Source of the DNA: Candidatus Moraniibacteriota bacterium | Lineage (GTDB): Bacteria; Patescibacteriota; Minisyncoccia; Moranbacterales; UBA11712 | Reading direction: 5' to 3' | DNA: 64,000 bases | Assembly: GCA_028695025.1 (NCBI GenBank) | Contig: JAQVJV010000002.1 | Location: 18,998-82,997, forward strand | Shown: positions 2,768 through 63,854 of the stretch, piece after piece | How positions within the stretch are numbered: position 1 is the stretch's first letter | Layout of the letters: each line of letters starts with the position of its first letter | Position numbers and translations under genes: made by a program | Notes under the pieces: model-generated | The model's input: only the letters and a program-made list of their open reading frames with translations | What the model was told of the DNA's origin: nothing | Database searches by the model: none

Positions 2768-5700
2768 ATGTCTCAAGAGGCCAAAACCCTCGGGGTGAAA
2801 GAGTCTTTCAGCCCGCAATCCTCTCTCCATAAGAGGAAATTTTTCAACCGGCGCGCAATGGTGTCCCTTCCGAACTTGATCGAAACGCAAACCATGTCAT
2901 ATGACTGGTTTCTCGCGGAAGGTATGCGTGAACTCCTCGATGAGGTTAACCCAATTGAGGATTTCACCGGAAAAGATTTGGAACTTTCTTTTGGAAAATA
3001 TTATCTTGACGAGCCGAAATACGACGAGAAAACGTCGAAAGAAAAAAATATCTCTTTTGAGGCGCCGCTCCGGTGCGCGGTGAGCCTTCTCAACAAACAG
3101 ACCGGGGAGGTGAAAGAACAGGAAGTTTATCTTGGAGACTTGCCGATCATGACCGACCGGGGAACTTTCATCATCAACGGCGTGGAAAGAGTGGTGGTGA
3201 GCCAGCTTATCCGAAGCCCGGGAGTCTTTTTCACGATGGAATATCAGAAGGGAAAGAAACTTTTCGGGGCGAAAATCATTCCGAACCGCGGAGCTTGGCT
3301 CGAAATGGAAACGGATCTTGACGGAGCCATTTGGGTGAAAATCGACCGCAAGCGAAAAGTGGCGATCACTTCTCTTTTGCGGGCTTTTGGCATTTCCACG
3401 GACGAGCTTTTGGCCAAAACTTTCGCCGATGTGAACAAAGGCGAGACGAATTATCTTGAAGCGACGATTGGGCGCGACGCGGCGAAGACCCAGGGAGATG
3501 GATTCAAGGAGGTTTACAAAAGAATTCGTCCGGGGGATCTCGCCTCCGTTGAAAACGCGCGGCAGATGATCGAATCGATGTTTTTCAATTTTGAGAGATA
3601 CGATTTCGGAAAAGTGGGGCGATACCGCTTGAACCAGCGTTTGGATGTGGATGAGCCGAATGACGAAGCGCATCGAATTTTGCGTCCGGAAGATTTGGTG
3701 CTGATCATCAAGGAAATTATCAATCTTAATAATAATCCGATGGCGGAGCCGGATGATATCGACCACCTTGGAAACCGGCGGGTGCGTTGTGTTGGGGAGC
3801 TTGTGCAAAACAAATTTCGGGCGGGACTTGCGCGCATGGTGCGAAATATCAAAGACCGGATGAGTACTTGCGATCTTGCCATAGTTGTTCCAGGTCAACT
3901 CGTAAACTCGCGTCCGGTGGCGGCGGCAGTCAAGGAATTTTTTGCTTCTTCCCAGCTTTCGCAATTCATGGATCAGGTGAATCCGCTGGCGGAACTTGAA
4001 CACAAGCGGCGGCTTTCCGCGATGGGGCCGGGCGGTCTCACCCGCGAACGGGCAAGCTTTGAAGTGCGCGATGTCCACCATTCCCACTACGGTCGGATTT
4101 GTCCGGTGCAGACGCCGGAAGGCCCGAACATCGGATTGGTGAATCATTTGTCTTGCTACGCGCGCATCAACGAGTTCGGTTTTCTCGAGACTCCGTATCG
4201 AAAAGTTGAGTTGAAGGACGGCAAGCCGTTTGTCACCAAAGATATTGAATATTTGAACGCGACCGTGGAAGATCGGAAAGTTATTGCTCACGCGGATATC
4301 CTGATTGACGACGATGGATATATCCAGGAAGAAAAAATTGAAGCGCGGGTGAAAGGGAAGCCGTCGGTGATTGAAGCGACGAAGGTTGACTATGTCGATG
4401 TTTCGCCGAAACAGTGTATTTCAATTGCCACTTCGCTCATTCCGTTCCTTGAGCACGACGATGCTCACCGGGCTCTCATGGGTTCAAACATGCAGCGCCA
4501 GGCAGTATCTTGCATTCTGCCGGATTCGCCGCTGGTGGGAACGGGGCTTGAAGACAAAGCGGCGGCTGATTCGGGACAGGTGATCCTTGCGCGCGAAGAC
4601 GGGGAAGTGGCGGAAGTGGATGCGGCACATATCACCCTCAAGACGGAAAAAGACGGAAAATCAACGAAGAAAATTTATTGGCTCCAGAATTTCGAACGCT
4701 CGAACGCTTTCACTTGTATGAATCAGATTCCGCGGGTTTCCCGGGGACAAAAAGTGGCGAAAGGCCAGCTTCTCGCGGACGGAGCTTCGACGGACAATGG
4801 GGAATTGGCGCTCGGCCAGAATGTTTTGGTGGCGCTCATGCCTTGGGAGGGGAACAACTTTGAAGACGCTATCATCATTTCTGAACGGTTGCTTCAGGCG
4901 GATCGCTATACTTCCATTCATATTGAAGATTTTTCAGTGGATATCCGTGATACGAAGCTTGGCCCGGAAGTGGTGACGCGAGATATTCCGAATATCGGTG
5001 AAGAGCGGCTCAAAAATCTTGACGATACGGGGATCATCCATATTGGAGCGGAGGTTTCTTCGGGAGATATTCTTGTCGGGAAAATTTCACCGAAAGGGGA
5101 AGGCGATCTCACCCCGGAAGAAAGATTGCTTCGCGCCATCTTCGGAGAAAAATCAAAGGACGTGAAAGATACTTCGCTTTATCTTCCGCACGGGGAACAT
5201 GGAAAAGTGGTGGATATCAAAATCTTTTCGCGCGAGCAGGGCGACAAGCTTCCGGCAGGAGTGATCCAGCAGATTCAGGTGAGTGTGGCGCAGCTTCGCA
5301 AAATTTCAGTGGGCGACAAGCTTGCCGGACGACACGGAAACAAGGGAGTGATTTCGAAAATTGCGGCGGTCGAAGATATGCCTTGCCTTCCGGATGGCCG
5401 ACCGGTGGATATCATACTCAATCCGCTTGGAGTGGCTTCGCGTATGAACATCGGCCAGATTCTTGAGGCGCATCTCGGTTGGGCGGCTTCCGAACTCGGA
5501 TACAAAATCGCAAGTCCCGCCCTTGACGGAGTGAGCGAACAGAACATAAAAGAGGAACTTAAGAAAGCGGGCCTTCCTGAAGACGGAAAGATGCGGCTTA
5601 TGAACGGAAAGACAGGAGAGTACTTCGACGAAAAAACCATGGTGGGATATATGTATATCATGAAGCTCAACCACTTAGTGGAAGACAAAATTCACATGCG

Positions 5701-10161: not shown

Positions 10162-10569
10162 CTATATCTTCAATCTCGCTTGTTTTCCGTGAAGCACCCG
10201 GTCGGCTTTTGAGAATATGGACTTGGTCCATTTTAAATATTCATCAGCCTCCTTTTTCGAAATTATTGCTCCGCCGCCATAAAGATCCCAATTTCTCTTT
10301 GCCCTCATTTCGTTGGCAAATACTTCGACTTCCGAATCGGAGAGGAGGCTGGAGAGTTTTTTGATGAGTTCGATGTGGTGGCCTCTTCTTGATTTCACCC
10401 GCAGATTTTGGCTGGCGCAAACCGCAATGGCCAGTTTGAGAAGCGCGTCGTAGCAAAAGCGAAAAGATACTTCGGCCACATTCGCTTCGCTGGCAATTCG
10501 AAAATCTCTTTGGGCGGATTTATGGTATTTTTCGATTTGTTTTCGGGAAAATTTGAAATGCTCGAACAT
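10162..10569 (-). CDS. HEPN-domain protein (HepT-like toxin of a HEPN/MNT pair)
   Basis: Rx4-6H motif in NLRVKSRRGHHIELI. 135 aa. Its start abuts the stop of the upstream nucleotidyltransferase (10569/10570). Confidence 0.7.
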   Translation of the reverse strand: MFEHFKFSRKQIEKYHKSAQRDFRIASEANVAEVSFRFCYDALLKLAIAVCASQNLRVKSRRGHHIELIKKLSSLLSDSEVEVFANEMRAKRNWDLYGGGAIISKKEADEYLKWTKSIFSKADRVLHGKQARLKI

Positions 10570-11115
10570 TCAAAATATTTTTATTGTTTTTTGCGAAAAT
10601 ATGTTTTTGATGAATTCATCTTTTTTCTTTCGGCGGATTTTCAGCTCGTTTCCCGTCATGTCCACGATATTCAGCTCCCGTCCCAATTTTTTCTCGAGCG
10701 GCAGAATCAAGCGCTTGGCCGAGAGGGAAGAGTGGCTTCCGACAAGCAGCAAATCAATGTCGCTTTCCTGCTGAAAAGAGTTTTTGGCGAAAGAGCCGAA
10801 AATCCAAGCCGATTCCAGCCCTTTTATTTTTTCCATTTCTTCTTTCAGGAGGTTCGCGACTCCGTATTTGGCATTATAGATTTGTTTTGTTTCCTTGAGA
10901 AGAGGATATTTTTCGTTGAGAAAAAAGTATTTTTGGTTTCCGGCCGCTTCCGAAAGCAAAATGCCTTCCTGTTCCAATTCCTTGAGCTTGCGAAAGAGAT
11001 TTCCCGGATCAGCTTCCAGAATTTCGGCCAGTTCGTTGATGTAATGTCTCCGGTGCGGATTGAGAAAGAAATATCCGAGCACTTTCACAGTGATTTTTGA
11101 GCGGAATTCAAGCAT
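10570..11115 (-). CDS. Minimal nucleotidyltransferase with N-terminal wHTH (MntA-like antitoxin)
   Basis: GSFAKNSFQQESDIDLLLV matches the GS-x(9-13)-DxD minimal NTase motif. N-terminal wHTH NELAEILEADPGNLFRKLKELEQEGIL. Confidence 0.75.
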   Translation of the reverse strand: MLEFRSKITVKVLGYFFLNPHRRHYINELAEILEADPGNLFRKLKELEQEGILLSEAAGNQKYFFLNEKYPLLKETKQIYNAKYGVANLLKEEMEKIKGLESAWIFGSFAKNSFQQESDIDLLLVGSHSSLSAKRLILPLEKKLGRELNIVDMTGNELKIRRKKKDEFIKNIFSQKTIKIF

Positions 11116-11165: not shown

Positions 11166-12614
11166 TCAAATTTCCCACACCTTCTCCAAAATATAATACA
11201 AATTCTCATCGCCCTTTCCGGTCGGGAGCTCCGCGCGCCGGGTTTCGATGATCTTGAATCCGGTGAGGCGGGCGAGGTTTTCGATGTCTTCAGGAGAATA
11301 GCAATAGCGGGTGGAAAAATGTTCTCCATTGGGAGAATCGTGAACTGTTCCTTCACGGATGTTGTATATGCCTTTCGCGTTCATCAATTTTTTGTATTCC
11401 CCGACATTTTCGGCATAAACCCCTTTTTCCCGGTCGGGTATGTCGAAGACAAATTTTCCTCCCGGCTTCAAGATGCGCGCGGCTTCGCGGAAAAGCCGGA
11501 CTTGCCCGGGAAGGGAGTATTCATGGAGGATGTTTCTTCCGAGCGAATAAACCGCGTCGAATTCCCGGTCTTCGTAGGGCGTATGGTGCCAGTCTTCTAT
11601 GGAAACGCGGGCGTTGGGGTCTTGTTTTTTTATCTCCTCGATATTTTCCGGTGTGATATCATATCCGGAAATTTCATAGCCGGCTTTTTTCATCTCAAGT
11701 AGCAGTCTTCCCGTTCCACATCCGGATTCGAGCACCTTGCTTCCCGGAGAAATGATTTCTTTGAGAAGAGAAACTTCTTTCTCATTGAGTTCCTTGTTGA
11801 GTTGGTGTTCTTTGATGTTGAATTTTCGATAAAAATCCTCAAGTTTTGCAAAAACCTCCTTGTCTTTGGTGGGGACGAGATAGGCGCGGGCGTTTTTCAA
11901 ATTTTCAGCCGCGTTTTGGTCATTTTCCTTTTCGCTCTTGATAATGAGGCCGTTGATTTTCTTGAGAGCCTCTCCCGCGCCGATGAGGTCGGTGAAGAGG
12001 ATAATGGTGAATTCATTTTTTTGTCCAAGAGGTTTTTGTTCGAGATGGCCAAGTAACTTTGTGGAAGAATATTCAGTGTCATAATCCATTATCAATTTGA
12101 TAAAAATTCTTTTCGTTCCGTCAATATCGCCCGGAAATGTTTCTATGAGCCTGGAAATTATGTCGATATTGTCTCTTCTCAAAGATGCGTTTTCCCGTTG
12201 AGATTGAAGCATTGCTCCAATAGACATTGTAAGCGGTCCTTCTCCACCGCGGTGGCGGTCATTTTTTTCCAAATCAAAATGTTTTGCGTAAGTCTCAATC
12301 GTTCTTTTCGCCATACCATAGCTGTCCAGTGGCGATTCTTTTCTGAAATAAACGTGCAATTTTTCCTCGAGAAAAAAGAGGAGCTTTGTTTTCCAGAATT
12401 TCATTGCGGCGATATCATGCGCCGCGTGTTCTCCCAAGGCATTTTTTGTCTTTTCATCAATTTCGAATTCAAGTATTCGGACCAAGAAATCCGGATCGTA
12501 TCTGACTTCAGAAGATTTTGCAATACTCTCTATCTTCCGCAGTTTCTCTTGAAAGTTTTCTATGATTGTTTTTGGAGAATCTATTTTGATTTTTTCCGGA
12601 TGTTCTTTTTCCAT
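11166..12614 (-). CDS. Two-domain protein: unknown N-terminal domain fused to a class I SAM-dependent methyltransferase
   Basis: C-terminal VLESGCGTGRLLLEMKKAGYEISGYDIT...DAVYSLGRNILHEY...LKPGGKFVF (motifs I, post-I, II). The first ~280 aa match no family I recognise; it contains a GEHAAHDIA motif. Confidence 0.7.
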   Translation of the reverse strand: MEKEHPEKIKIDSPKTIIENFQEKLRKIESIAKSSEVRYDPDFLVRILEFEIDEKTKNALGEHAAHDIAAMKFWKTKLLFFLEEKLHVYFRKESPLDSYGMAKRTIETYAKHFDLEKNDRHRGGEGPLTMSIGAMLQSQRENASLRRDNIDIISRLIETFPGDIDGTKRIFIKLIMDYDTEYSSTKLLGHLEQKPLGQKNEFTIILFTDLIGAGEALKKINGLIIKSEKENDQNAAENLKNARAYLVPTKDKEVFAKLEDFYRKFNIKEHQLNKELNEKEVSLLKEIISPGSKVLESGCGTGRLLLEMKKAGYEISGYDITPENIEEIKKQDPNARVSIEDWHHTPYEDREFDAVYSLGRNILHEYSLPGQVRLFREAARILKPGGKFVFDIPDREKGVYAENVGEYKKLMNAKGIYNIREGTVHDSPNGEHFSTRYCYSPEDIENLARLTGFKIIETRRAELPTGKGDENLYYILEKVWEI

Positions 12615-12644
12615 GATGCCATTATATCATTTTCGAAATAAAAA

Positions 12645-12682
12645 AAGGAGAAAGCCGGCGCGTGGTTGGCGCGAGCTTTCTC
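12645..12682 (-). terminator. Rho-independent terminator after the 126-aa ORF
   Basis: GGAGAAAGCCGGCGCGTGGTTGGCGCGAGCTTTCTCC hairpin. On the minus strand it is followed by a T-run (plus AAAAAAAGG at 12651-12659). Confidence 0.6.
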
Positions 12683-12782
12683 CCAAAACCCTAGTGGCTC
12701 GTTTTTGTTGAAGCGGATCCGATAACCGCTGAATTTTTCACGCGAAGTGTTTGCCATCAGGCTGGAGTCGCGACATCTCCTT

Positions 12783-13163
12783 CTATTTTTTCTGCCAACC
12801 TTCCGAAGGCGACCACTGCCAGCCGCCCTCAAAAGACTTGTTTTTCAGGAAAGGAACGTGATCCTCTATCTCGCTCCTTCCCTCCCAGACAAAGTCGGAA
12901 AGTTTGAGCTTTCCGGCTTTGTCTGAGTATTGATAAACTGTCGGGCGACGGTGGTCGCCCGGGGCACAATAGACGACGACTTCTATGTCGCCATCTATTG
13001 CCTCGAACTCGACCATGTCGAATGGCCGAGTTGACCCCTTTGTGGGGGTCGGGTTGGAACCGTCGGCACGGTATTCGTGCCGCCATACCCAATTCTTTAT
13101 TTCCGTAATCATTTTCCCTCCGCCCGCCGTCCGTGGCAGGCAACTTTTTTGAATTCTTTTCAA
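12783..13163 (-). CDS. Hypothetical protein
   Basis: 126-aa ORF in a locally GC-rich stretch. No recognisable motifs. Alternative start near 13112. Confidence 0.35.
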   Translation of the reverse strand: MKRIQKSCLPRTAGGGKMITEIKNWVWRHEYRADGSNPTPTKGSTRPFDMVEFEAIDGDIEVVVYCAPGDHRRPTVYQYSDKAGKLKLSDFVWEGRSEIEDHVPFLKNKSFEGGWQWSPSEGWQKK

Positions 13164-13291
13164 TTCCGCGCCAGTGTAAGTTTTCCTTTGCGCGGGATTG
13201 TTTCTTTCGGCGAATCGCCGCAGGAATTGTGAAAATGTTTTCGCAGCTCTTGCAGCGATTCACCCTTATTCAATTTTCAAAGATCTTTTCC

Positions 13292-13311
13292 TCCAGCACT
13301 AACTTTGGACT
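13292..13311. repeat. Left 20-bp perfect inverted repeat TCCAGCACTAACTTTGGACT
   Basis: Exact reverse complement of 13571-13590. Confidence 0.9.
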
Positions 13312-13322
13312 ATAATGCATTT

Positions 13323-13583
13323 ATGCATTATGTATATTTTCTAAAAAATGAATCTGGTGAAATATATATTGGATGCACTAGCGATTTGAGAAAAAGATTG
13401 ATCGAACACAATCGCGGTTATTCCAATTATACTCGCGGTCATCAATGGAAACTCGTTTACTATGAAGCCTACTTTTCAAGAATTGATGCCGAGACAAGAG
13501 AGAAAAGGCTCAAATATCACGGACAGGCTTTGGCTCAATTAAAGAGGCGCATAAAGAAAAGTTTCCTTTCAGTCCAAAGTTAG
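13323..13583 (+). CDS. GIY-YIG nuclease family protein (YhbQ/UPF0213-like)
   Basis: MHYVYFLKNESGEIYIGCTSDLRKRLIEHN carries the GIY-YIG signature. The ORF track starts at TTG 13305; ATG 13323 is preferred. The stop codon lies inside the right inverted repeat. Confidence 0.8.
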   Translation: MHYVYFLKNESGEIYIGCTSDLRKRLIEHNRGYSNYTRGHQWKLVYYEAYFSRIDAETREKRLKYHGQALAQLKRRIKKSFLSVQS

Positions 13584-13590
13584 TGCTGGA
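13571..13590. repeat. Right 20-bp perfect inverted repeat AGTCCAAAGTTAGTGCTGGA
   Basis: Exact reverse complement of 13292-13311. Confidence 0.9.
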
Positions 13591-13686
13591 TCCACAAAAA
13601 TGCCAATGAGTCGGGGATTGATAAGAAGAGAGTAAATAATCAATCACATGCCAACTCACTGGCATATTTGAGGCTCTCTTCTTGAG

Positions 13687-13812
13687 GCTTGTTTTTTTAA
13701 TAAGCCTGACCTCTTGCTCAACGAATTGAGCAAGAGAACCACTTATTACTTCCGGAACGGTTGCCGGAAGGCGAAGCAGTTTCGTTTCCGCACTCTTTAT
13801 CTCTCTTCTTGC
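13687..13812 (+). ncRNA. Candidate structured RNA region (hairpins; SRP-RNA-domain-IV-like GCC-GGAA-GGC...AAGCAG motif)
   Basis: No credible ORF in the ~560-bp span 13600-14170. Perfect 11-bp hairpin CTCTTGCTCAA-CGAA-TTGAGCAAGAG at 13711-13737. CGGAAC...GTTTCG helix enclosing TTGCC-GGAA-GGCGAAGCAG. Speculative. Confidence 0.2.
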
Positions 13813-14074
13813 TAGTCTGTTATAAAGAATGTTTGGGTATTCCCTCTGCTTCGTGGCCGTTGAAAGCCGTTTCATCAGAGGATATTCTTCCCTAAGAGCT
13901 TATTATCCTGCGATAAAACTGGACTATTTGATTATTTGCTGAAAGAACTCTCTTCTTAGCCAGCTGCTTTTTCAGCTTGACTGGGTAGTATAGCATTTTG
14001 TAGACGGATTGTCAAGATTAGGGTCAAAAATATTTGAGATTTGAGATGATAGTCTTGAGAAATGGGCTTATATA

Positions 14075-14103
14075 TTGACAAATATGGCTGTTTCTGCTAG
14101 AAT
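14075..14103 (+). promoter_or_regulatory. Putative sigma70 promoter for TrmB-like regulator 2 (TTGACA, 17 bp, TAGAAT)
   Basis: TTGACA 14075-14080 and TAGAAT 14098-14103. GCTTATATATTG... is homologous to the promoter region at 262-302. Confidence 0.55.
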
Positions 14104-14173
14104 ATAAATAACGACCTAAAGACCGACAAATATCGCATAACGCGTAACTCGTAACGCAAAACGCAACAAACGG

Positions 14174-14926
14174 ATGCTATCTAACGATCTCGAAAAACTG
14201 GGCTTGAGCGACAAGGAAGCCAAAGTATATTTGGCGGTTTTGGAGTTGGGGGAGGGAAATATCGCCCAAATTGCCAAAAAATCGGGCGTGAAGCGGACGA
14301 CAGTCTATGATATCGCGCTCTCGCTAAAAAGTAAGAATTTATTGCTGGAAACCATGAAAGGCAAAAAAAATATCTATTCCGCCGAAGATCCCCGGAAATT
14401 GGACGATGTCTATGACGAGCGAAAGGCGACGCTCAAAAAGATTTTGCCGGAACTGCTTTCAGTCATGAACGCGATTGAGAAAAAGCCGCGCATCCGATAT
14501 TTTGAGGGCGCGGAAGGAATCAAGGAAGTTTATAAAGACACGCTCAAATATCCCGACCAGGAAATCCAGGCTTGGGTGACGAGTGAAGCGATGACCAAAT
14601 TCGACGTTGAATGGCTCGAAAAATATTATGTGCCCAAGCGCCTTGAGAAAAAAATCTGGGCGCGGGTGATTGCGCCAAAAACAGAGGAGGTTGTCGATTA
14701 TCAAGAACGCGATGAAAAGTCTTTGCGGCAAACACGATTGGTCGACCCGAAAGAATTTCCCATGGAAGTGGAGATCAATCTCTATGGCGGGCGGAACATC
14801 GGGGTCATGGCTTTTGGCGAGCAGATGGGCCTTGTCATTGAGAGCCGGAAGATATACAAAACGCTTAAGAGCATATTTGAGCTTGGCTGGAAATCTCTCG
14901 AAAAATATGCTAAGATGAATCAGTAA
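14174..14926 (+). CDS. TrmB-family transcriptional regulator (paralog 2)
   Basis: LSDKEAKVYLAVLELGEGNIAQIAKKSGVKRTTVYDIALSLKSKNLL wHTH. The C-terminus aligns with paralog 1 (KKIWARV..., ...VIESRKIYKTLKSIFE). Confidence 0.7.
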   Translation: MLSNDLEKLGLSDKEAKVYLAVLELGEGNIAQIAKKSGVKRTTVYDIALSLKSKNLLLETMKGKKNIYSAEDPRKLDDVYDERKATLKKILPELLSVMNAIEKKPRIRYFEGAEGIKEVYKDTLKYPDQEIQAWVTSEAMTKFDVEWLEKYYVPKRLEKKIWARVIAPKTEEVVDYQERDEKSLRQTRLVDPKEFPMEVEINLYGGRNIGVMAFGEQMGLVIESRKIYKTLKSIFELGWKSLEKYAKMNQ

Positions 14927-55770: not shown

Positions 55771-55815
55771 ATTCACAAGTGTCCTCGGCAGGAATTTCAC
55801 CCCGCACCATTTCAT

Positions 55816-55887
55816 TCTCCTCGGCAGGAATCGAACCTGCATAACCAGCTTAGAAGGCTAGTGTTCTATCCGTTGAACTACGAGGAG
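55816..55887 (-). tRNA. tRNA-Arg (anticodon TCT), flanked by the 13-bp inverted repeat CCCCGCACCATTT/AAATGGTGCGGGG
   Basis: CTCCTCG acceptor. CTAGC-CTTCTAA-GCTGG anticodon arm. GCAGG-TTCGATT-CCTGC T arm. Leader and trailer are complementary. Confidence 0.85.
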
Positions 55888-55909
55888 GATAAATGGTGCG
55901 GGGGGCGGG

Positions 55910-63187: not shown

Positions 63188-63784
63188 TTGAAAATATTAA
63201 GCCGCCGATTCTATTCTCAAAACACAATCAAGATTGCCCAAGAACTTCTGGGTTGTTTTCTTGTCCGGGAATATCGCGGAAAAATTATGAAAGTGATAAT
63301 CACGGAAACAGAAGCCTATATTGGGGAAAATGATTTGGCGTGTCATGCGTCGCGCGGTCGGACGCCGCGGACGGAAGTGATGTATGGCGTGCCGGGGCAT
63401 GCCTATGTATATATGATCTATGGGATGTATCATTGCCTGAATGTTGTGACGGAAGAAAAAGATTTTCCCGCGGCGGTTTTGATCCGGGGCGGGATAAATC
63501 CCTCTCCAGCTCTCCCTTTAGCAAAGGGAGAGAGTCCGGGTTTCCCCCTTTGGCAAAGGGGGACTAAGGGGGATTTAAACGGTCCCGGAAAACTCTGCCG
63601 GTTTTTGAAAATTGACCGAAAACTTAATACATGGGATCTCACAAAAAGCGAGAAATTGTGGATTGAGGAACGAGATTCGAAAATAAAATTGCCGAAAGTG
63701 ATAAAGTCTCGGCGTATTGGCATCGATTATGCGAAACATTGTAAAGAATATTTATGGAGATATTCCCTGTCATCCCGCACTTGA
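63188..63784 (+). CDS. mpg: DNA-3-methyladenine glycosylase (Mpg/AAG family) carrying an in-frame palindromic-repeat insertion
   Basis: ETEAYIGENDLACHASRGRTPRTEVMYGVPGHAYVYMIYGMYHCLNVV...AVLIRGG[INPSPALPLAKGESPGFPLWQRGTKGDL]NGPGKL...RIGIDYA. The bracketed segment is encoded by two hairpin repeats. Confidence 0.8.
   Translation: MKILSRRFYSQNTIKIAQELLGCFLVREYRGKIMKVIITETEAYIGENDLACHASRGRTPRTEVMYGVPGHAYVYMIYGMYHCLNVVTEEKDFPAAVLIRGGINPSPALPLAKGESPGFPLWQRGTKGDLNGPGKLCRFLKIDRKLNTWDLTKSEKLWIEERDSKIKLPKVIKSRRIGIDYAKHCKEYLWRYSLSSRT
63505..63575. repeat. Two palindromic hairpin repeats inside mpg (CTCTCCCTTT-AGCA-AAGGGAGAG and CCCCCTTTG-G-CAAAGGGGG)
   Basis: Same repeat family as the intergenic copies. 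Located in a surface-loop position of Mpg. Reading frame preserved. Confidence 0.85.
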
Positions 63785-63854
63785 TGCGGGATCCAGAGAT
63801 ATATCTAGTTATGTTTTCTGGATCCCGGCTCAAAGGCCGGGATGACATAATCTA

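Follow-up and report, generated by a model that had tools for sequence, protein, structure and literature searches.

The 64-kb window analysed here, a 64,000-nt stretch of contig JAQVJV010000002.1 from a Candidatus Moraniibacteriota assembly (GCA_028695025.1), contains a 299-bp unit (window positions 13292-13590) in which a gene for an 86-aa GIY-YIG nuclease is enclosed by a perfect 20-nt inverted repeat. The left arm, TCCAGCACTAACTTTGGACT (13292-13311), and the right arm, AGTCCAAAGTTAGTGCTGGA (13571-13590), are exact reverse complements, as a first-pass annotation of this DNA had described. With up to three mismatches allowed, the 20-mer TCCAGCACTAACTTTGGACT occurs in the window only at these two places, compared with 0 copies expected (100 shuffles), which agrees with the annotation's view that the repeat did not arise by chance; shorter cores of the 20-mer led to the same two sites and to no others. 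The gene (13323-13583, plus strand) corresponds to the 87-codon GIY-YIG open reading frame (ORF) listed there, being 86 aa plus a stop, and its single domain matches Pfam PF01541 (E=7.8e-13) over residues 1-68. Its last three codons and the TAG stop (13581-13583) lie within the right arm, again as described. The reported overlap of the start region with the left arm holds for the mechanical ORF only, which begins at TTG 13305 inside that arm; homologues fix the start of the gene at ATG 13323, 12 nt after the arm. The G+C content is 0.34-0.35 over the unit against ~0.45-0.55 in its flanks, and no tRNA or Rfam family (gathering score and E<=5) overlaps the region, which excludes a match to any intron, riboswitch or known small RNA.

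The window protein has a 100% identical counterpart in a Candidatus Moranbacteria metagenome-assembled genome (MAG). Residues Y5, Y15, R25, H29 and E60 are invariant in the family alignment, and the AlphaFold model consists of one compact GIY-YIG domain (pLDDT 91.4), whose nearest folds are UPF0213 proteins and Slx1. All NCBIfam matches were sub-threshold, including grpIintron_endo with 17.8 bits against a cut-off of 56. The family hidden Markov model found no second GIY-YIG gene in the window. A 121-aa minus-strand ORF at 13510-13875 was considered as a gene and rejected, as it is not conserved in relatives and has no Pfam match.

Within the left arm, the outer 8 nt (TCCAGCAC) form the core common to the family, while the inner part varies from locus to locus yet is still complementary to its partner. 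Read across the unit, the arms give TCCAGCAC[...]GTGCTGGA, followed directly 3' of the right arm by TCCAC (13591-13595, plus strand). A hexamer resembling a -10 box, TATAAT (13311-13316, plus strand), ends 6 nt before the start codon; it is invariant in five syntenic sequences, similar boxes occur at the same position in many family members, and it is probably a promoter element of the nuclease gene. Between that arm and ATG 13323 there is no recognizable Shine-Dalgarno sequence. Together with the invariant TATAAT, this suggests that the nuclease transcript is near-leaderless and lacks the left arm. Folding of the unit, which had been recommended for the transcript, returned the long-range stem in the minimum free energy (MFE) structures of both DNA and RNA (z ~ -6), a result to be expected for any perfect 20-bp repeat. 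In the same folds a local hairpin, ATAATGCA-TTTA-TGCATTAT (13312-13331, plus strand), is stacked on the long stem and contains the start codon, so that in the RNA fold the two together bury it. A self-contained hairpin within a single arm (TCCAG..TTGGA) was also considered; it is present in the window lineage, is not conserved in the family and was rejected.

The gene order GIY-YIG nuclease, TrmB-like regulator, FtsK is common to the window, L001, L130 and L131/L132. Among these syntenic lineages, TrmB is 81-86% identical, FtsK 76% and the nuclease 73-80%. In an alignment of five sequences the left arm is identical at 20/20 positions and the right arm at 19-20/20 in every pair, the left arm being 20/20 across four syntenic lineages. 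Within the nuclease ORF, codon positions 1-2 are 82-93% identical and position 3 only 45-65%, and the 100 nt upstream are ~50-65% identical. Given this conservation of protein and arms relative to third positions and the upstream flank, the alignments show that the nuclease gene is intact and that both the protein and the two arms at this locus are under purifying selection, the arms being more constrained than the gene's synonymous sites. For the same reason, the comparison indicates that the copy at this locus is old and vertically inherited.

Further relatives were collected through a search with the protein of the neighbouring TrmB-like regulator, and their contigs were compared. Relatives without the unit at this site, for which the first-pass annotation had advised searching, do exist. 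In L213 (TrmB 69% identical) the upstream and downstream parts are joined directly, forming an empty site; the terminator hairpin of the upstream part is found in L001 too, and the downstream part in all the other lineages. Its empty junction reads ...TTTATTGTC|TCCACAAAAATGCC (also given as ...GAGTTCGACTTTTCTTTATTGTC|TCCACAAAAATGCCAGTGAGTC), to be compared with the occupied site of L001, ...TTTCTTTC[TCCAGCAC..GTGCTGGAT]TTCACAAAAATGCC, whose left flank is also given as ...GAGTTCGACTTTTCTTTCTTTC. The junction coincides with the repeat ends to within an ambiguous tetranucleotide, TCCA, of which the empty site has one copy and the window one at each junction; it may belong to the target or to the motif, or be a 4-nt duplication. 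No palindrome is present in the empty site of L213 (TTTATTGTCTCCACAAAAATG). L211 (TrmB 82% identical) contains neither the ORF nor the left arm, and has AAAAGTTAGTGCTGGAT, the right arm only, at the expected position behind ~55 nt of unrelated sequence. With the right arm kept and the rest gone, L211 is on sequence grounds a decayed copy of the unit. Wherever the unit is present, its arms are conserved and not degraded; degraded repeats, together with a lack of other copies and presence at the locus in all relatives, were what the annotation held would speak against a mobile unit. A different family member, 38-42% identical, occupies the same intergenic region in L213 (1727-2023) and L214 (3203-3489), with arms ACCCCGCACTTTT/AAAAGTGCGGGGT. 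It lies in the 5' untranslated region (5'UTR) between the TrmB promoter and the TrmB ATG, 8-9 nt before the latter, so that the TrmB-like regulator must be transcribed through the whole unit. By these comparisons, the window unit is a discrete insertion delimited by its repeat. The proposal of a miniature mobile unit carrying a GIY-YIG nuclease is thus sustained in the evolutionary sense, given the empty and decayed sites described here and the ORF-less copies and other insertion sites described below, and not in the sense of recent mobility, the copy being old and vertically inherited.

The architecture is widespread. About 294 homologues of the window protein were collected, mostly of 84-86 aa and mostly from metagenomes of the candidate phyla radiation (CPR), and a HMMER scan of 1.84 billion representatives returned 3587 clusters at E<=1e-3 and 263 at E<=1e-10. 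The repeat was scored at 83 fetched loci, part of them fetched with a 15-sequence protein alignment, by comparing the 150 nt upstream of the ATG with the region around the stop. In 76 of the 83, mostly CPR metagenome contigs, an inverted repeat of 12-28 nt hugs the ORF, whereas in shuffled flanks the score averaged 7.7 and did not exceed 11. There are usually 0-30 nt between the end of the left arm and the ATG, and the stop codon is overlapped or directly followed by the right arm. The arm sequence is specific to each locus and changes in both arms together with pairing kept; the variants, always two-sided, include TCCAGCAC.., CCCAGCAC.., ACCCCGCAC.., TCCCGCAC.., CCCACAC.. and CCCCCACACC.., and further examples across loci are TCCAGCACTAACTTT.., CCCAGCACTAACTTTC.., ACCCCGCACTAACTTT.., TCCCGCACTAATTTTT.., ATCCCACACTAAC.., CCCAGCACTCAATTGG.., CCCCCACACCTAT.. 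and CCCCGCACCCAG... An outer core, YCCMRCAC, and often GCACTAACTTT are conserved in sequence between proteins only 53-80% identical, and the innermost 3-6 arm pairs vary freely. The same core recurs at unrelated loci and in different phyla, the arm type co-varies with the lineage of the enclosed nuclease, and the two arms co-vary with each other across the family. On the sense strand, G.T mismatches outnumber A.C mismatches in the family arms by 38 to 22, counts that are inflated by over-extended alignments. No consistent target-site duplication was found at ~15 family junctions, TCCA at the window site being ambiguous, and no transposase was found in the window or near the units at 80 loci.

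Several features recur in the flanks of family members. In L136, L151, L154, L156, L167, L133 and L162 a consensus TTGACA-17-TATAAT promoter for the downstream gene begins directly at the right arm, whose end is overlapped by the -35 box, and in L134, L144 and L163 the right arm is followed by TGTGGATAA, a 9-mer resembling a DnaA box. TTGAC or TCAA is frequent on both sides of the units. Some arms (..GCACCA) resemble tRNA 3' ends, and some right flanks resemble DnaA or -35 boxes.

Paired arms also occur without an ORF. The first-pass annotation had advised looking for further copies of the 20-mer; there are none beyond the pair in the 64 kb, and a 15-mer pattern of one arm, run over 185,579 genomes, gave listed matches that were mostly chance singles. 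Among the matches listed, four loci (L013, L035, L036 and L077) have same-type paired arms 37-98 nt apart with no ORF between them. The L013 copy, in Kuenenbacteria, is 1.7 kb from a full unit, and those of L035 and L036 are on two contigs of one Parcubacteria MAG. Such ORF-less miniature copies (minis) were found near a full unit in ~15 of 80 metagenome loci, and in an alignment of 13 of them the arms were the only common part. The mini of L202 (869-950), beside a full unit at 291-545, retains ATGTATTACGTATACCTAAAC, the first seven nuclease codons (MYYVYLN), and thus derives from a full element by internal deletion. A mini of 87 nt in L001 is situated in the loop of the hairpin GGTTAAGC..AGCTTAAC, which is uninterrupted in the window, L131 and L211, and L213 has another private mini. 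Comparison of orthologous sites thus shows gain and loss of ORF-less hairpins with the same arms, at least one of which arose by internal deletion.

A related structure lies elsewhere in the window. At 55800-55903 (minus strand) a hairpin with 13-bp perfect arms, CCCCGCACCATTT / AAATGGTGCGGGG (55903-55891 and 55812-55800), has its loop occupied by an entire tRNA-Arg(tct). The hairpin splits an outer tRNA-Arg copy on the minus strand after the T-stem, with a 51-nt 5' part at 55960-55910 and a 3' remnant at 55799-55781. Among relatives, a plain Arg-Lys-His tRNA cluster is present in L216 and a 12-nt 5' remnant of tRNA-Arg in L217, and the P0394 contig of another relative has a gene for a 79-aa GIY-YIG protein at this position. 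With the arm core as the feature in common, the tRNA-bearing hairpin probably belongs to the same element family.

More distant family members are located inside rRNA genes, on the sense strand: in 23S genes in L170, L183, L200, L205, L206 and L208, and in 16S genes in L179 and L184. In L179 (~4040-4360) a 298-nt insert is found at the tip of helix 6 of 16S. In L170 (5970-6272) the insert is at the tip of helix 25 of 23S, where the native stem runs straight on into the arms and the outer CCCA/UGGG of the arms aligns with it. Helix 25 is the classical site of intervening sequences (IVSs) excised by RNase III. The ORFs of classical IVSs belong to the S23p family and are not GIY-YIG. In L205 a group I intron is present nearby (699-912). 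GIY-YIG ORFs in non-intron insertions of CPR rRNA genes were reported by Brown 2015, as cited in a later survey, which found such ORFs sparse, never in group I or II introns and 'outside the context of homing', placed the insertions at the top or base of stem-loops and suggested RNase III-type IVSs for them; the text of that survey says nothing of inverted repeats beside them, with 0 occurrences of 'inverted repeat' (Tsurumaki 2024, PMC11270868). The family thus resembles these insertions in having a stem with an ORF in its loop and, in its distant members, the same kind of arms at helix tips; the window copy differs in being intergenic, and the stem-loop insertion at an rRNA helix tip that defines an IVS is absent there, with L170 and L179 as the relatives that have it.

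The closest parallel to the whole arrangement comes from single-domain GIY-YIG proteins (cd10448, ~94 aa) recently described as Ssn, site-specific nucleases of single-stranded DNA (ssDNA) that cut beside hairpin repeats named NTS or SRM (Chenal 2025, Nat Commun 16:2388, PMC11893778). Ssn genes are typically flanked on both sides by these repeats in a layout 'identical to' that of insertion sequences (IS), with no evidence given for movement of the module, and SsnA of Neisseria meningitidis also cuts a hairpin assembled from two oligonucleotides (Chenal 2025). When the window protein was searched against plasmids with tblastn, the better of two matches was a 94-aa Rhizobium protein flanked by SRMs, which was used as a proxy for SsnA in the sequence comparison. 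The two proteins are 44% identical by BLASTP (47 bits, E=1e-13) and align by hhalign with a probability of 98.5%; the UPF0213 proteins BH0048 and EF2693 reach only 23-27 bits against either of them. The Rhizobium gene has on both sides inverted hairpins that match the published SRM pattern (CGTCATCCCAGGGCTTGACCCTGGGATCCAC), the SRM reading TCCCAGGG-CTTGA-CCCTGGGA and then TCCAC, the 3' tail also found beside the right arm in the window.

The window itself contains a canonical SRM hairpin doublet, inverted and 20 nt apart (63768-63848), just after a methylpurine-DNA glycosylase gene (63188-63784). It consists of TGTCATCCCGCACTTGATGCGGGATCCAG at 63768-63796 (plus strand) and the reverse complement of TCTGGATCCCGGCTCAAAGGCCGGGATGACAT at 63817-63848; the first hairpin matches the published pattern and reads TGTCA-TCCCGCAC-TTGA-(T)GCGGGA-TCCAG. 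Across 589 kb of CPR loci only two hairpins match the pattern, with 0 matches in shuffled sequence, and a near-identical SRM hairpin is present in an unrelated CPR contig (L184, 1981-2009). The window stem, TCCAGCAC/GTGCTGGA followed by TCCAC, resembles both TCCCGCAC/GCGGGA followed by TCCAG and TCCCAGGG/CCCTGGGA followed by TCCAC. Within this genome the doublet is the arms' short-loop relative, and it may be linked to the window nuclease. The unit shares with the Ssn/SRM system a single-domain GIY-YIG protein of ~90 aa, an inverted, hairpin-forming repeat on both sides in an IS-like layout, and a repeat core of TCCC/TCCA..GC with a TCCAC/TCCAG tail. Repeat copies without an ORF elsewhere in the genome may be a further likeness: the 64 kb covered contain no second arm pair, but do contain the SRM doublet and the same-core hairpin at 55800-55903. 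These similarities suggest that the window unit belongs to the Ssn/SRM kind as a variant whose gene is placed within a single split hairpin.

We therefore favour, with fair but far from complete confidence, the explanation that the unit is an insertion-like element made up of a gene for a small Ssn-like GIY-YIG endonuclease placed within its own split cognate hairpin, that is, a split SRM. If so, the arms would pair when the region becomes single-stranded, for example during replication or DNA uptake, a step extrapolated from the biochemistry of SsnA (Chenal 2025). By analogy with SsnA, the encoded nuclease would recognize the sequence-specific stem and nick beside it, and host repair or recombination might then copy or move the unit, without a consistent target duplication. 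Loops of existing hairpins would be favoured targets, as in the mini of L001, the rRNA helix tips and the tRNA T-loop. The window copy would be a persisting master copy or a domesticated module, maintained for a long time as a single copy, as RAYT is in REPtrons. At the RNA level, the same pairing would sequester the start codon and might keep host transcripts insulated from the unit.

Several observations weigh against this explanation. The SRM pattern HGTCWYN(0-2)YYVSBRHN(0-5)WNVSBRGN(0-2)RNCYNB has no match within or beside 13292-13590, nor at six other family loci. The arms lack the 5' GTCWY tail on both strands, although GTCAA or GTCCGAATT precedes the core in some subfamilies, and the 'loop' measures 259 nt, compared with 0-5 nt in an SRM, so that the window gene lies inside one hairpin with halves 259 nt apart and not between two complete hairpins. 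The stems are also longer (16-20 bp), the host belongs to the CPR and the copy number is low, with one arm pair in 64 kb as against hundreds of NTS copies in Neisseria. The copy has been kept at its locus through ~20-25% divergence of the neighbouring proteins and gives no sign of recent mobility. To our knowledge, a GIY-YIG nuclease has no way to form a covalent intermediate or to rejoin DNA, and so does not by itself account for the movement step. Finally, the members at rRNA helix tips and in the 5'UTR, the excess of G.T mismatches and the sequestered start codon fit a role in RNA equally well.

Such a role is the alternative that survives best, although we consider it unlikely as the main explanation. 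Here, an RNase III-type stem, as in an rRNA IVS, would excise the insert or insulate it from the host transcript and would gate translation of the nuclease. The sense-strand members in 16S and 23S genes at the tips of helices 6 and 25, the RNase III-type IVSs suggested for the non-intron GIY-YIG insertions of CPR rRNA (Tsurumaki 2024), the L213/L214 copies transcribed through from the TrmB promoter and the burial of the ATG all accord with it. The mismatch bias points the same way, but it is weak and inflated and does not decide between pairing in RNA and in DNA, and it was set aside as a discriminator. RNase III requires pairing and not sequence, yet GCACTAACTTT and the YCC core are conserved, and core and tail resemble the DNA hairpins cut by Ssn nucleases. 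The conserved TATAAT lies downstream of the left arm and ahead of the ATG, so that a transcript of the unit itself may lack this arm, and the gain, loss and diversification of units are left unaccounted for. Since ORF-less copies keep the same arms, and since the arms are conserved in sequence and not only in pairing, the stem enclosing the mRNA that the first-pass annotation offered as its other possibility does not appear to be the primary explanation and may stand as a secondary role. Roles in RNA and DNA may coexist.

A true miniature inverted-repeat transposable element (MITE), depending for its movement on a DDE-type transposase encoded elsewhere and carrying the GIY-YIG gene as a passenger between its terminal repeats, is very improbable. 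The perfect terminal repeats, the small size, the existence of ORF-less versions and the two copies of TCCA flanking the window unit, as against one in the empty site, would all be in keeping with a MITE. The junctions across the family, on the other hand, show no consistent target-site duplication, no transposase was detected in the window or near the units at 80 loci, and the arms co-vary with the lineage of a nuclease that is itself under purifying selection. Because the minis keep the arms only, and one of them the first ORF codons, the ORF-bearing form is the parent. The label 'MITE-like' given in the first-pass annotation is thus not appropriate for a unit that is coding and has neither a consistent duplication nor an accompanying transposase.

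We give equally little credence to a free-standing homing-endonuclease gene that landed in the loop of a pre-existing palindrome, the repeat being the interrupted host target. It would suit the family hairpins found in host hairpin loops (the mini of L001, rRNA helix tips and the tRNA T-loop) and the continuity of the L170 arms with the native helix 25 stem; against it, the empty site of L213 contains no palindrome, the same arm core occurs at unrelated loci and in different phyla, and a homing endonuclease normally has a DNA-binding domain, which the 86-aa window protein lacks. Nor is the unit a group I intron with its homing endonuclease, as no Rfam intron match (gathering score or E<=5) was found in 12600-14300 and the site is intergenic. 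Least probable of all is a fixed host feature, such as an operator or bidirectional terminator of the neighbouring genes with an incidental nuclease, since the unit, though present and invariant in sequence in four syntenic lineages and the only copy in 64 kb, has the same architecture at dozens of unrelated loci and a locus with empty, decayed and differently occupied states.

Returning to the nuclease within its split hairpin, other known systems share parts of this organization. REPtrons and REPINs (RAYT) likewise consist of one small nuclease gene bracketed by inverted palindromic repeats, with ORF-less doublets that share only the repeat; their gene is single-copy and vertically inherited, the repeats are kept by selection, and no target duplication is seen. 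They differ in having an HUH/Y1 transposase in place of the hydrolytic GIY-YIG nuclease found here, and the repeats per genome are apparently far fewer in our case. Elements of the IS200/IS605 family are analogous in being small, in having ends recognized as ssDNA hairpins and in lacking a target-site duplication. They have subterminal, non-identical hairpins, TnpA (HUH) and a specific tetra- or pentanucleotide target, none of which was found in the window unit, whose sole ORF is GIY-YIG and whose ends are one perfect terminal inverted repeat. The UPF0213 proteins BH0048 and EF2693 and Slx1, which is structure-specific for branched DNA, are the nearest solved folds and are small GIY-YIG/URI domains; we take the UPF0213 family to include E. 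coli YhbQ as well. Their similarity to the window protein is much lower (23-27 bits compared with 47 bits to the SRM-flanked homologue), with neither the LVYYE nor the REK.LK motif in common.

Ssn nucleases entered the literature only in 2025, and the CPR or Patescibacteria are not mentioned in that description (Chenal 2025). A full-text search of the literature found no account of hairpin-bounded GIY-YIG units in CPR/Patescibacteria. Our analysis adds orthologous sites in empty, decayed or differently occupied states, derivatives that keep only the arms, and a conservation of the arms above that of synonymous sites, and together these suggest that in CPR bacteria the nuclease gene and the hairpin form one insertion unit. 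A bolder generalization, which we offer tentatively and hold to be rather less probable than its negation, is that these are autonomous, hairpin-ended mobile elements of CPR bacteria whose sole protein is a ~86-aa GIY-YIG ssDNA nuclease, without transposase, recombinase or ligase. They would insert without consistent duplication, preferring hairpin loops (terminator loops, rRNA helix tips and the tRNA T-loop), would spawn arm-only forms, could carry cargo such as a tRNA, and would be rendered harmless by processing of the stem from host RNA. Such a class would link the GIY-YIG insertions of CPR rRNA genes to the Ssn/SRM system. If the nuclease recognizes a stem formed by two distant half-sites, it would amount to a compact, programmable ssDNA cutter with new specificities, each family locus providing a matched pair of enzyme and site.

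Some observations concern the surroundings of the units. Family units tend to occur in small accessory-gene islands. Nucleotidyltransferase/HepT-type toxin-antitoxin pairs are located around the same variable region in the window (10162-11115), in L001 (994-1621 and 3506-4381) and in L213 (277-901 and 2799-3639), and the Kuenenbacteria copy (L004-L009) is surrounded by HicAB and YoeB/ParE-like pairs. Upstream of the window unit, a 17-bp hairpin with 94% complementarity, CAGACAAAGTCGGAAAG / CTTTCCGGCTTTGTCTG (12886-12925), is situated within an unannotated 126-aa minus-strand ORF (12783-13163) that has no Pfam match.

Directly downstream, a non-coding region of ~390 nt (13591-13985), probably on the minus strand, is conserved in the window, L001, L131, L211 and L213. 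Neither a conserved ORF nor an Rfam match is present in it, while its promoter, TTGACA-17-TATACT (14015-13987, minus strand), is conserved. Next to the right arm of the unit lies a terminator-like hairpin (13599-13672) with T5 after it, and the minis of L001 and L213 are inserted in this region. RNAalifold predicts 83 pairs, 23 of them with compensatory changes. The region is a candidate for a new structured RNA of Moranbacteria.

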